Assembly: GCF_016026235.1 (NCBI RefSeq)
Contig: NZ_CP065613.1
DNA length: 64,000 bases
Strand: one strand, 5' to 3'
From: Escherichia coli
GTDB taxonomy: Bacteria; Pseudomonadota; Gammaproteobacteria; Enterobacterales; Enterobacteriaceae
Below are positions 24,101 through 27,100 of this stretch, piece after piece. A program made the position numbers. Position 1 is the first letter of the stretch; the number at the start of each line of letters is the position of its first letter.

Positions 24101-27100
24101 GGATACACCAGAGAACGATGCAGCCTTCCCCCGCCAGACACATGCCGGGAACCCGGCGCTCTACCCGCAGGTCAAAATGGTCTGCCAGATGGAACTGACC
24201 AGCCATCTGCTGACGGCTGCAGCCTTCGGCACGATGAAGAACAGCGAAAATGAGCTTGCTGAGCAACTTATAGAACAAACCGGCGATAACACTCTGACGT
24301 TAATGGATAAAGGTTATTACTCACTGGGACTGTTAAATGCCTGGAGCCTGGCGGGAGAACACCGCCACTGGATGATACCTCTCAGAAAGGGAGCGCAATA
24401 TGAAGAGCTCAGAAAACTGGGTAAAGGCGATCATCTGGTGAAGCTGAAAACCAGCCCGCAGGCACGAAAAAGTGGCCGGGACTGGGAAATGAAGTGACAG
24501 CCCGCCTGCTGACCGTGACGCGCAAAGGAAAAGTCTGCCATCTGCTGACGTCGATGACGGACGCCATGCGCTTCCCCGGAGGAGAAATGGCGGATCTGTA
24601 CAGTCATCGCTGGGAAATCGAACTGGGATACAGGGAGATAAAACAGACGATGCAACTGAGCAGGCTGACGCTGAGAAGTAAAAAGCCGGAGCTTGTGGAG
24701 CAAGAGCTGTGGGGTGTCTTACTGGCTTATAATCTGGTGAGATATCAGATGATTAAAATGGCGGAACATCTGAAAGGTTACTGGCCGAATCAACTGAGTT
24801 TCTCAGAATCATGCGGAATGGTGATGAGAATGCTGATGACATTGCAGGGCGCTTCACCGGGACGTATACCGGAGCTGATGCGCGATCTTGCAAGTATGGG
24901 ACAACTTGTGAAATTACCGACGAGAAGGGGAAGGGCCTTCCCGAGAGTGGTAAAGGAGAGGCCCTGGAAATACCCCACAGCCCCGAAAAAGAGCCAGTCA
25001 GTTGCTTAACTGACTGGCATTACACCGGTCGGCAGCCCTTTTTTATCTATGATAGTGATTACTCAACCGTAACCGATTTTGCCAGGTTACGCGGCTGGTC
25101 AACGTCGGTGCCTTTGATCAGCGCGACATGGTAAGCCAGCAGCTGCAGCGGAACGGTGTAGAAGATCGGTGCAATCACCTCTTCCACATGCGGCATCTCG
25201 ATGATGTGCATGTTATCGCTACTTACAAAACCCGCATCCTGATCGGCGAAGACATACAACTGACCGCCACGTGCGCGAACTTCTTCAATGTTGGATTTCA
25301 GTTTTTCCAACAGTTCGTTGTTCGGTGCAACGACGATAACCGGCATATCCGCGTCAATCAGCGCCAGCGGGCCGTGTTTCAGCTCGCCTGCAGCGTAGGC
25401 TTCAGCGTGAATGTAAGAGATCTCTTTCAGCTTCAATGCGCCTTCCAGCGCGATTGGGTACTGATCGCCACGGCCCAGGAACAGCGCGTGATGTTTGTCA
25501 GAGAAATCTTCTGCCAGAGCTTCAATGCGTTTGTCCTGAGACAGCATCTGCTCAATACGGCTCGGCAGCGCCTGCAGACCATGCACAATGTCATGTTCAA
25601 TGGAGGCATCCAGACCTTTCAGGCGAGACAGCTTCGCCACCAGCATCAACAGCACAGTTAACTGAGTGGTGAATGCTTTAGTGGATGCCACGCCGATTTC
25701 CGTACCCGCGTTGGTCATCAGCGCCAGATCGGATTCGCGCACCAGAGAAGAACCCGGAACGTTACAGATTGCCAGCGAACCAAGGTAACCCAGCTCTTTC
25801 GACAGACGCAGGCCCGCCAGGGTATCCGCGGTTTCGCCAGACTGTGACAAGGTGATCATCAGGCTGTTACGACGCACGGCAGATTTGCGATAGCGGAATT
25901 CAGAGGCGATTTCGACGTCGCACGGAATACCTGCCAGCGATTCAAACCAGTAACGGGAAACCATACCGGAGTTATAAGAAGTACCACAGGCGAGGATCTG
26001 AATATGCTCAACCTTCGACAGCAGTTCGTCGGCGTTCGGTCCCAGCTCGCTTAAATCAACCTGACCGTGGCTGATGCGCCCGGTAAGGGTGTTTTTGATC
26101 GCGTTCGGCTGTTCGTAGATCTCTTTCTGCATGTAGTGACGGTAAATACCTTTATCGCCCGCGTCATATTGCAGATTGGATTCGATATCCTGACGTTTTA
26201 CTTCCGCGCCAGTTTTATCGAAGATGTTTACCGAACGGCGAGTAATTTCCGCAATATCGCCCTCTTCAAGGAAGATAAAGCGACGGGTCACCGGCAGCAG
26301 CGCCAGCTGGTCAGAAGCGATAAAGTTTTCGCCCATACCCAGACCAATCACCAGCGGACTACCAGAACGTGCCGCCAGCAGGGTATCCGGGTGACGGGAG
26401 TCCATGATCACTGTACCGTACGCACCACGCAGTTGCGGGATAGCACGCAGAACAGCCTCACGCAGAGTACCGCCCTGTTTCAGCTCCCAGTTCACCAGAT
26501 GGGCAATTACTTCGGTGTCTGTTTCAGAAACGAAGGTATAGCCACGCGCTTTTAACTCTTCGCGCAGCGGTTCATGGTTTTCGATGATGCCGTTATGCAC
26601 CACCACAATGTGTTCAGAAACATGCGGATGCGCATTCACTTCTGAAGGTTCACCGTGGGTCGCCCAGCGAGTATGAGCAATACCCGTACCGCCATGCAGA
26701 GGATGTTCTTCCGCTGCCTGAGCCAGCATCTGGACTTTACCGAGGCGACGCAGGCGGGTCATATGACCTTCCGCATCAACAACGGCCAGACCGGCAGAGT
26801 CATATCCGCGGTATTCCAGACGACGTAAACCTTCAAGAAGGATTTCTGCTACATCACGTTGCGCGATCGCGCCAACAATTCCACACATAGTTTTTGATTC
26901 CGATTTATATCGTTGTCGGTCAACCTGTATGCCCGTTTTTTCGGGCGCCCCGAGCCTTGTAGAGAGTGGGGTTATTTTTATAGTTACTGCTTGTGGGAGG
27001 GAGATTATGTTATCTCCTCATCCCAGATGACCGGATTACCCGGCCAGAATTACTTTTTCTTTACCGGACGACGCCAGCCTTCTTTCTGAGTCTGCGGCAC

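Follow-up and report, generated by a model that had tools for sequence, protein, structure and literature searches.

The interval 26889-27049 on the minus strand is the exact 161-nt intercistronic spacer between glmU and glmS, as given by the ORF listing for the 64-kb window (the whole stretch of Escherichia coli DNA analysed here). It is the canonical E. coli control region between these genes and most likely operates as in K-12, and on sequence comparison the stem-loop that had been flagged in it (hairpin 1 below) is the least conserved and least constrained element of the spacer. The first-pass annotation had placed the glmU-glmS spacer here, and this is borne out by ORFs that match at both ends, with all features on the minus strand, a strand it had not specified. 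Its description of a glmUS region subject to RNase E processing and GlmZ activation of glmS agrees with the literature, where it is established that RNase E processes the transcript at the glmU stop and that GlmZ with Hfq activates glmS (PMC4152352, PMC1885654, PMC2377431, PMC3439879); this control spacer is already known and well studied. Its location, its identity to the characterised leader, its hairpins, its complementarity to GlmZ and its pattern of conservation were observed directly in the present analysis. The features of the region, in window coordinates and in the order of transcription, are as follows.

27050-28420, minus strand: glmU (ORF listing)
27050-27052, minus strand: glmU stop codon UAA (UGA in K-12), presumed site of RNase E cleavage in the window strain by mapping in K-12 (PMC1885654) and by consensus (PMC5222698)
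27028-27046, minus strand: hairpin 1, UGGCCGG-GUAAU-CCGGUCA, 7-bp stem and 5-nt loop, -11.2 kcal/mol
27026-27027, minus strand: UC in place of K-12 CA, within CACAU↓GGG of K-12, the location of a mapped minor 5′ end, 'band b' (PMC1885654)
26994-27025, minus strand: hairpin 2, UGGGAUGAGGAGAU-AACAUA-AUCUCCCUCCCA, -15.3 kcal/mol, with 0 of 1000 shuffles as stable
26971-26988, minus strand: A-rich single-stranded stretch AGUAACUAUAAAAAUAAC with (ARN)n triplets, identical to K-12, candidate for one of the two published Hfq (ARN)3 motifs
26948-26971, minus strand: hairpin 3, CCCC-ACUCUCUACAAGGCUC-GGGG, inside a conserved 28-nt block
26931-26946, minus strand: hairpin 4, GCCCG-AAAAAA-CGGGC, with an A-rich loop
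26910-26928, minus strand: GlmZ-binding site by cofolding, ACAGGUU (-40 to -34) and GACAACGA (-29 to -22), identical to the K-12 site
26899-26912, minus strand: small hairpin CGAU-AUAA-AUCG by folding, running into the weak Shine-Dalgarno (SD) sequence GGA (-13 to -11; 26901-26899)
26886-26888, minus strand: glmS start codon AUG (ORF listing and folding)
25059-26888, minus strand: glmS (ORF listing)

The spacer was found in 5424 of 5426 complete E. coli genomes, and in strain 720632 the region carrying a 100%-identical spacer is annotated glmU-glmS. The allele is common, being at least 99% identical across the full spacer in 740 genomes, with the 5′ part at least 99% identical in 572. In K-12, where the region is served by the GlmY-GlmZ-RapZ-Hfq-RNase E circuit, the same genes enclose a spacer of the same length, and 157 of the 161 positions are identical. 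All four differences lie within nt 1-24; nt 25-161 are, base for base, the K-12 leader that has been characterised by experiment, including the GlmZ site, the A-rich Hfq motifs, hairpins 2-4 and the SD/AUG region. The A/U-rich context of the mapped RNase E site is also shared. The window allele departs from K-12 in the loop of hairpin 1 (GUAAU against CUAAC), in the linker from hairpin 1 to hairpin 2, where the minor 'band b' maps, and, additionally, in the glmU stop codon. An Rfam search returned no family match at gathering score in the window for the leader or for GlmZ, and none at E≤1 in 26700-27250. The leader had been described as AT-rich up to the glmS ribosome-binding site; it is mildly so (52.8% AT, against 46-47% in the flanking genes, with two local 75%-AT patches), but it is not a plain AT-rich stretch, as it contains three G+C-rich stem-loops besides hairpin 1.

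The base-pairing with GlmZ that the first-pass annotation had proposed as a check was found by cofolding, with K-12 GlmZ as proxy. The predicted duplex has 15 bp, with leader positions -40 to -34 pairing with GlmZ nt 163-169 and -29 to -22 with nt 150-157, and reproduces the published two-helix 15-bp glmS-GlmZ interaction. In K-12 this site on glmS has been validated through compensatory mutations (PMC4152352). An Rfam search did not find a GlmZ gene in the 64-kb window, and GlmZ of K-12 and of STEC17-190, the closest relative sharing the IS4 junction described below, were taken as proxies for that of the window genome. Across 5424 E. coli genomes GlmZ shows at least 99% identity, and that of STEC17-190 differs solely at nt 181, in the terminator, leaving the pairing region identical. 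The glmZ gene belongs in the hemY-aslA spacer, and the sequence expected for GlmZ nt 150-169 is UUGUUGUCAUACAGACCUGU. When GlmZ nt 146-172 were scanned against both strands of the window, the glmS site scored -19.2 kcal/mol, which ranks it only in the top 0.5% of 32-nt windows; the strongest chance match, 12 bp at 2340-2309, reached -29.2 kcal/mol. Because the glmS site is not the best-scoring one in the window, hybridisation energy was not used as evidence of specificity, which rests instead on identity to the validated K-12 site and on invariance across genera, the blocks CAGGU and CGACAAC being unchanged in 16 of them. An unrestricted duplex prediction between full leader and full GlmZ was discarded, as it returned meaningless long-range duplexes that were worse than shuffles. 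The idea that the flagged hairpin marks a processing and sRNA-control site thus holds for the region but not for the hairpin, since GlmZ pairs about 100 nt downstream of it (26928-26910).

The GlmZ site would, on the folding model, also form the 5′ arm of a structure enclosing the SD and the start codon. In the minimum free energy fold, glmS nt +2 to +7 and -4 to -1 pair with the GlmZ-site arm (spacer nt 119-128), and the small hairpin abuts the SD; 288 of 1000 shuffles gave an equally stable enclosing fold. The K-12 glmS leader, whose sequence is that of the window leader, has been SHAPE-probed, and Hfq (ARN)3 motifs and Hfq footprints have been described in it (PMC3439879). The (ARN)n motif AAAAAUAAC (26979-26971) and the A6 loop of hairpin 4 are both present and identical to K-12, although the exact nucleotides assigned here to an Hfq motif in the A-rich stretch are our own candidate placement.

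Conservation marks out as constrained hairpins 2 and 4, the invariant hairpin-3 block and both GlmZ-pairing blocks. Hairpin 2 is limited to the Enterobacteriaceae, across which it covaries, with six pairs changed on both sides and 91.8% of alignment cells paired, against at most 72.6% in slid controls. The 28-nt hairpin-3 block is invariant in 18/18 Enterobacteriaceae leaders and recognisable throughout the order Enterobacterales. The stems of hairpin 4 vary between genera yet remain complementary; these compensatory variants were noted by eye and are unscored, hairpin 4 having been left out of the RNAalifold covariation scoring because MAFFT misaligned its variable-length loops. From the alignments, the core common to the order comprises the invariant CCCC...GGGG block, hairpin 4 and the GlmZ site. 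Among 36 other Enterobacterales loci, the leaders share the A-rich stretch, hairpin 3 and hairpin 4 with its A-rich loop, together with a GlmZ-type site, (A)CAGGU...GACAxC, the small hairpin and then an AGGAA or CGGAA SD. Escherichia and Kluyvera lack an 11-nt hairpin insert upstream of the SD. GlmYZ systems of Salmonella and Yersinia are present in the literature.

Hairpin 1 follows a different pattern. The string originally quoted for it, ggccgggtaatccggtc, corresponds to 27045-27029 on the minus strand, and one extra U-A pair extends the stem to 27046-27028. The hairpin is real, but it had been put at the glmU stop and in fact starts 4 nt past the UAA (UAA-UUC-UGGCCGG...). It is single-copy, with one exact match in the 64-kb window and still one copy when up to three mismatches are allowed. 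Its stem is preserved in K-12, UTI89 and ampC_0069, where a C>U change gives a G·U pair, and in E. albertii it is retained through a compensatory C-G>U-A change. In the natural isolate E. coli ET245 (allele GGTAAGCTAACCCGGTC), CCG>TAA destroys the stem and the fold drops to -2.1 kcal/mol. Among the 38 Enterobacterales leaders compared, hairpin 1 is present in Escherichia only. Some stem-loop does lie shortly past the glmU stop in 18/18 Enterobacteriaceae leaders; of the 16 non-identical genera, 14 have an unrelated palindrome there, and Leclercia and Enterobacter sp. Bisph1 have hairpin 2 itself in this place, 7-10 nt past the stop. We regard hairpin 1 as a peripheral, lineage-specific stem-loop outside the regulatory core, at most a boundary beside the cleavage site or a 5′-terminal stem.

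As to what it does, we lean towards neutral filler, one of many small palindromic (REP-like) sequences occupying the permissive stretch that separates the glmU stop from the conserved leader. The gap from stop to hairpin 2 spans 7-130 nt across genera and holds palindromes unrelated to one another, among them REP-like GCCGGAUG... and CCCUCUCCC...GGGAGAGGG elements; ERIC-like inserts are tolerated at other places in the leader; and ET245 has lost the hairpin naturally. However, its single-copy status means that no recognisable repeat family is represented here, and both the compensatory stem change in E. albertii and the hairpin of some sort near the stop in every one of the Enterobacteriaceae leaders examined sit poorly with neutrality. 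These last observations count equally towards a functional hairpin 1, either as a guide positioning RNase E at the stop or as a 5′-terminal stem-loop shielding the 5′-monophosphate end that processing leaves on the glmS mRNA, which we consider possible but the less probable account. The stem is stable (2/1000 shuffles fold equally well) and within E. coli its changes are G·U-compatible, and a role in RNase E recognition has been conjectured in a review (PMC4152352). Against this, sequence conservation ends with Escherichia, nearly all spacer variation within E. coli lies in or next to hairpin 1, the ET245 allele leaves little fold, and Photorhabdus leaders have no hairpin ahead of the ARN/hairpin-3 core. 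The processed glmS mRNA is, moreover, reportedly unstable unless GlmZ acts (PMC4152352). As a 5′ shield, hairpin 1 would have just 3 unpaired nt ahead of it.

The near-stop hairpins of the 18 Enterobacteriaceae leaders come from at least five unrelated palindromes or from hairpin 2, and one might suppose that a stem-loop of arbitrary sequence soon after the glmU stop is selected for its position, hairpin 1 being one interchangeable solution that sets the RNase E cut or caps the processed glmS 5′ end. We hold this only tentatively and think it rather unlikely; if true, ET245 would serve as a naturally occurring mutant in which glmUS processing or the basal expression of glmS is changed. Far less credible is an intercistronic terminator or attenuator that lowers glmS relative to glmU transcription, or an internal glmS promoter in the spacer. 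Hairpin 1 is indeed a G+C-rich stem-loop right after a stop codon, but the sequence past it (CAUCUGGGAUG) has no U-run, and inactivation of RNase E leads to a build-up of the 3.5-kb full-length glmUS co-transcript (PMC1885654). A terminator scan called 13 terminator-like sites, hairpin 1 not among them, and the reading as a Rho-independent terminator was rejected on finding CAUCUGGG rather than a U-run downstream of the stem. The promoter scan found no promoter-like site on the minus strand of the spacer, on which ground the internal promoter was likewise rejected.

The RNase E site at the glmU stop has been mapped in K-12 (PMC1885654). Here the stop-codon context AAAAAGUAA↓UUCU provides R-N↓W-U of the cleavage consensus RN↓WUU (A,A↓U,U,C; PMC5222698) and is unpaired in the predicted fold. 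We infer RNase E cleavage, Hfq binding and GlmZ activation in the window strain from experiments in K-12 and Salmonella, and the region would work as follows. RNase E would cut the glmUS co-transcript at the glmU stop, where the sequence is A/U-rich and single-stranded, and release a glmS mRNA that begins UUC and runs directly into hairpins 1 and 2. Its weak SD and start codon would be shut in a structure whose 5′ arm is the two-block GlmZ site. With Hfq on the upstream A-rich (ARN) motifs, full-length GlmZ would pair with this arm (15 bp, -40 to -22), opening the structure, activating glmS translation and thereby stabilising the mRNA.

Lastly, we considered the 3′ end of glmS, where an insertion sequence had been reported in the terminator. 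This is correct, and the features concerned are as follows.

23598-25022, plus strand: IS4, 1425 bp, transposase gene convergent with glmS, inside the hairpin of the native glmS terminator
25023-25035, minus strand: glmS-proximal copy of the 13-bp target duplication, CTGCCGACCGGTG; the other copy is at 23585-23597
24993-25018, minus strand: terminator-like hairpin in the IS4 end (terminator scan), 11 bp followed by UCUUUUU, -18.7 kcal/mol

IS4 is about 1426 bp long, with imperfect 18-bp terminal inverted repeats, an 11-13-bp target duplication and an IS4-family transposase. The present element agrees with this in its length, in the 13-bp direct repeats ctgccgaccggtg that flank it on both sides and in its transposase, although the transposase ORF is split by a frameshift, a 1-nt deletion in a T-run near 24472. 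Its ends are TAATGCCAGTCAGTTAAG and TAATGCCGATCAGTTAAG, and it is 99.2% identical to a copy annotated 'IS4-like element IS4 family transposase'. Joining the flanks without IS4 restores a -24.5 kcal/mol terminator of A-tract, hairpin and U-tract, and empty-site strains match the window exactly as far as 25023; E2865 is one relative with the empty site. In contrast to K-12, the window has an lpf-O113-type downstream region and terminator, now split by IS4.

The suggestion that the insertion could change glmS 3′-end stability stands in so far as the native terminator is split, but the IS4 end brings a terminator-like hairpin of its own, whose stem finishes 66 nt past the glmS stop (25059 minus 24993). 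Transcripts of glmS now probably end at this hairpin, and IS4 is predicted to replace the terminator with its own rather than merely to remove it. Because the IS4 terminus carries a strong terminator-like hairpin and U-run, a large effect on glmS stability is not the default expectation. That IS4 materially alters glmS expression through loss of the native terminator and 3′ stabiliser strikes us as improbable. The remnant beside glmS folds at just -4 kcal/mol, a part for the 3′ hairpin in determining how glmS mRNA decays has been discussed (PMC1885654), and the junction is rare, being found in only 4/5426 genomes; yet the IS4-end hairpin is no less stable than the native core (-13.5 kcal/mol) and the K-12 terminator (-17.7 kcal/mol), and the influence of PAP I on glmS was later traced to GlmY, not to the glmS 3′ end (PMC2377431, PMC4152352).

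The arrangement resembles other cases of anti-antisense activation (DsrA, RprA and ArcZ on rpoS, and RyhB on shiA), in which the sRNA likewise pairs with a 5′ arm occluding the ribosome-binding site, with the same dependence on Hfq and upstream (ARN)n motifs (PMC4152352, PMC3439879). Unlike rpoS and shiA, glmS stands second in an operon, and it is the RNase E-processed mRNA, not the primary transcript, that serves as active substrate. The glmS ribozyme of Gram-positive bacteria (RF00234) controls the same enzyme through the glmS 5′ leader and responds to GlcN6P, but does so by self-cleavage, whereas control in E. coli is by a trans-acting sRNA. Identity with RF00234 was rejected, there being no Rfam match at the E-value and interval given above.

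The product of GlmS, glucosamine-6-phosphate, is the first precursor committed to peptidoglycan and LPS synthesis. Intrinsic tolerance to GlmS inhibitors is set by the GlmY/GlmZ circuit acting on the glmS leader (PMC4908143). As the functional core is the K-12 sequence base for base, there is no hint of an altered circuit in the window copy. What the comparison offers is a clarification: the eye-catching hairpin 1 is the least constrained element of this leader, and the constraint sits in hairpins 2-4 and the GlmZ-pairing blocks.

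The stretch from 26889 to 27049 is precisely the glmU-glmS spacer (161 nt), as delimited by the limits of the two ORFs:

glmU: 27050-28420, minus strand, from the ORF listing
glmS: 25059-26888, minus strand, from the ORF listing

Genes annotated glmU and glmS flank a 100%-identical spacer copy in another strain, and the spacer is present in 5424/5426 complete E. coli genomes (at least 99% identity in 740, 95-99% in the remainder). Read 5′ to 3′ on the minus strand, AAAAAG, the stop codon UAA and UUC lead into hairpin 1 (UGGCCGG, loop GUAAU, CCGGUCA), followed by UCU and hairpin 2. 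An A-rich stretch, hairpin 3, hairpin 4, the GlmZ site, a small hairpin, GGA and AUG complete the arrangement. As a whole, the 184-nt leader folds more stably than its shuffles (z = -2.9). The description of this leader as AT-rich fits only in part: its AT content is 52.8% vs 46-47% in the flanking genes, with two 75%-AT patches, and it also holds three further G+C-rich stem-loops. Over 20000-44000 of the window, the closest complete E. coli genome is 97.9% identical across 24 kb and the spacer is 100% identical to hundreds; the lineage of this genome may be divergent or mosaic. An Rfam match to the enterobacterial sRNA STnc410 (28504-28661, plus strand, 187.7 bits) falls in the glmU-atpC interval, oriented against glmU.

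The first-pass annotation had assigned RNase E processing and GlmZ-dependent activation of glmS to the spacer. At the level of the region this is correct and matches the established literature. The RNase E consensus RN↓WUU was defined by TIER-seq in Salmonella, which also recovered the glmUS site (PMC5222698); AAAAAGUAA↓UUCU at the window's stop codon agrees with R-N↓W-U and is a predicted cleavage site. The glmS SD is masked by a stem-loop, and full-length GlmZ, assisted by Hfq, pairs with the left half of that stem-loop at -41 to -19, as proven by compensatory mutations (PMC4152352). Hfq is bound by two (ARN)3 motifs, mapped by SHAPE and footprints (PMC3439879, summarised in PMC4152352).

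The GlmZ gene was not found within the window, and the K-12 copy (L001:933-1139) was used for pairing. Co-folding with the window leader predicted 15 bp, agreeing with the published interaction: glmS -40 to -34 (ACAGGUU) with GlmZ 163-169 and -29 to -22 (GACAACGA) with GlmZ 150-157. Additional predicted pairs, involving GlmZ 62-71, are likely to be artefacts. A GlmZ of at least 99% identity is present in 5424 E. coli genomes; in STEC17-190, the closest relative with the same IS4 junction, it differs solely by C181U in the terminator stem. Hybridisation at the glmS site (-19.2 kcal/mol) is in the top 0.5% of windows, but a chance site at 2340-2309 reaches -29.2, and 288 of 1000 shuffles are as stable as the minimum free energy fold enclosing the SD and AUG. 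Because energies alone do not discriminate the site, our argument relies on its conservation and its identity with the validated site. Both pairing blocks, CAGGU and CGACAAC, are unchanged across 16 genera, whereas the pre-SD hairpin and linker are variable.

A GlmU search of genome contigs recovered 80 loci; glmS follows glmU in 36 Enterobacterales loci, with spacers of 107-448 nt. Hairpin 2 is kept with covariation in 18 Enterobacteriaceae sequences, with six pairs changed in both partners and 91.8% of cells paired, vs at most 72.6% in slid controls; the observed values were reached by 0-1 of 500 shuffles. The 28-nt block AUAACCCCACUCUCUACAAGGCUCGGGG (hairpin 3 and its loop; 26948-26975, minus strand) is invariant in 18/18 Enterobacteriaceae glmS leaders and recognisable across Enterobacterales (Photorhabdus, Providencia, Erwinia, Dickeya and Edwardsiella), a conservation exceeding that of the GlmZ-pairing site. 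Its loop, invariant as well, hints at a sequence-specific partner, one that the cited glmS-leader literature does not account for. Hairpin 4 is variable in sequence with complementarity kept, as judged by eye. In Citrobacter youngae (L006), Leclercia (L008) and Cedecea (L017), hairpin 4 is separated from the GlmZ site by ERIC-like insertions (GGGAGCTTAC...AAGTAAGTGACC) some 100-130 nt long, so the spacing of the Hfq-motif region and the GlmZ site is not under constraint.

Hairpin 1, on which the first-pass annotation had centred control, behaves otherwise, and that emphasis was wrong. The quoted string is present and folds, but the hairpin starts 4 nt after the stop codon rather than at it. 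At 27046-27028 it forms a 7-bp stem, including one U-A pair beyond that string, with a 5-nt loop (-11.2 kcal/mol; equalled by 2 of 1000 shuffles). Among the Enterobacterales leaders compared it is confined to Escherichia, and within E. coli spacer variation concentrates there. The stem is retained in E. albertii through G.U to A-U and C-G to U-A changes and in strain ampC_0069 through a G.U pair. In strain ET245 (L088, NZ_CP100978.1, around 4595950), CCG to TAA (GGCCGG to GGTAAG) destroys it, the fold falling to -2.1 kcal/mol; in a 101-nt search, 24 records share ET245's 90-95% identity band. In other genera the gap from stop to hairpin 2 spans 7-130 nt and holds unrelated palindromes, REP-like GCCGGAUG... 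and CCCUCUCCC...GGGAGAGGG, or nothing (Leclercia, Enterobacter sp. Bisph1). This comparative pattern points to hairpin 1 as the outermost, youngest and least constrained leader element.

As to its role, we lean slightly towards neutral palindromic filler within a permissive gap. A less likely reading is that it marks a structural boundary that guides RNase E, or caps the processed mRNA as a 5′ stem; this draws some weight from the fact that all 18 Enterobacteriaceae leaders have some hairpin shortly after the stop. A terminator or attenuator was rejected, since no U-run follows hairpin 1 and the full-length glmUS co-transcript accumulates without RNase E (PMC1885654); nor did the terminator scan call it.

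At the glmS 3′ end, the insertion does split the native terminator, as previously noted, but the consequence drawn for 3′-end stability was incomplete, missing the element's own terminator-like hairpin:

IS4: 23598-25022, 1425 bp, ends TAATGCCAGTCAGTTAAG and TAATGCCGATCAGTTAAG, 13-bp flanking repeats CTGCCGACCGGTG
IS4-end terminator-like hairpin: 25018-24993, minus strand, 11 bp, -18.7 kcal/mol, then UCUUUUU; flagged by the terminator scan

When the two flanks are joined, an A-tract/hairpin/U-tract terminator (-24.5 kcal/mol) reappears, and strains with the empty site are an exact match as far as 25023. This native terminator is part of an lpf-O113-type downstream region, unlike that of K-12, from which the sequence beyond the glmS stop codon, terminator included, differs from the first base. 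The IS4-end hairpin reads inward from outside the element and its stability equals or exceeds that of the native core (-13.5) and of the K-12 terminator (-17.7); its stem ends 66 nt from the glmS stop, compared with some 40 nt in the case of the native one. Such a built-in structure would stop read-through from glmS and is the most likely 3′ end of its transcripts. The stability of glmS could change markedly, but this is not expected; the poly(A) polymerase effect once ascribed to the glmS 3′ hairpin acts via GlmY (PMC2377431, PMC4152352). The junction (24900-25200) occurs in 4/5426 complete E. coli genomes (99.3, 99.3, 95.3 and 93.4% identity). These may share it by descent, or IS4 may have inserted repeatedly at a hot spot. 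The window copy is 1425 rather than 1426 bp, T6 to T5 near 24472 breaking the transposase into ORFs 23664-24497 and 24494-25009 (plus strand), and carries 11 substitutions; the STEC17-190 copy is intact. The frameshift may mark the element as decayed or stem from a sequencing error in the homopolymer. A fimbrial operon (20543-23319, minus strand) follows glmS and IS4; its counterpart in STEC17-190 is annotated lpfA/B/C-O113 (long polar fimbriae), and K-12 has pstS in this place.

Relative to MG1655, the K-12 reference, the spacer carries four differences, two of them in the loop of hairpin 1 (nt 11 and 15) and two in the stretch that separates it from hairpin 2 (nt 23-24). The latter sit within CACAU↓GGG, where a minor K-12 5′ end was mapped (PMC1885654). 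The glmU stop is UAA in the window vs UGA in K-12. Among the Enterobacterales examined, K-12 stands out with its UGA, UAA being used in E. albertii and nearly all others and UAG in a few, and a Lys-rich AAGAAAAAG-type tail precedes the stop in every case. Spacer nt 25-161 are the same as in K-12, and all elements with published function fall within them. The glmUS control system is already known, and judged by its sequence the window carries a common natural allele whose functional core is intact.
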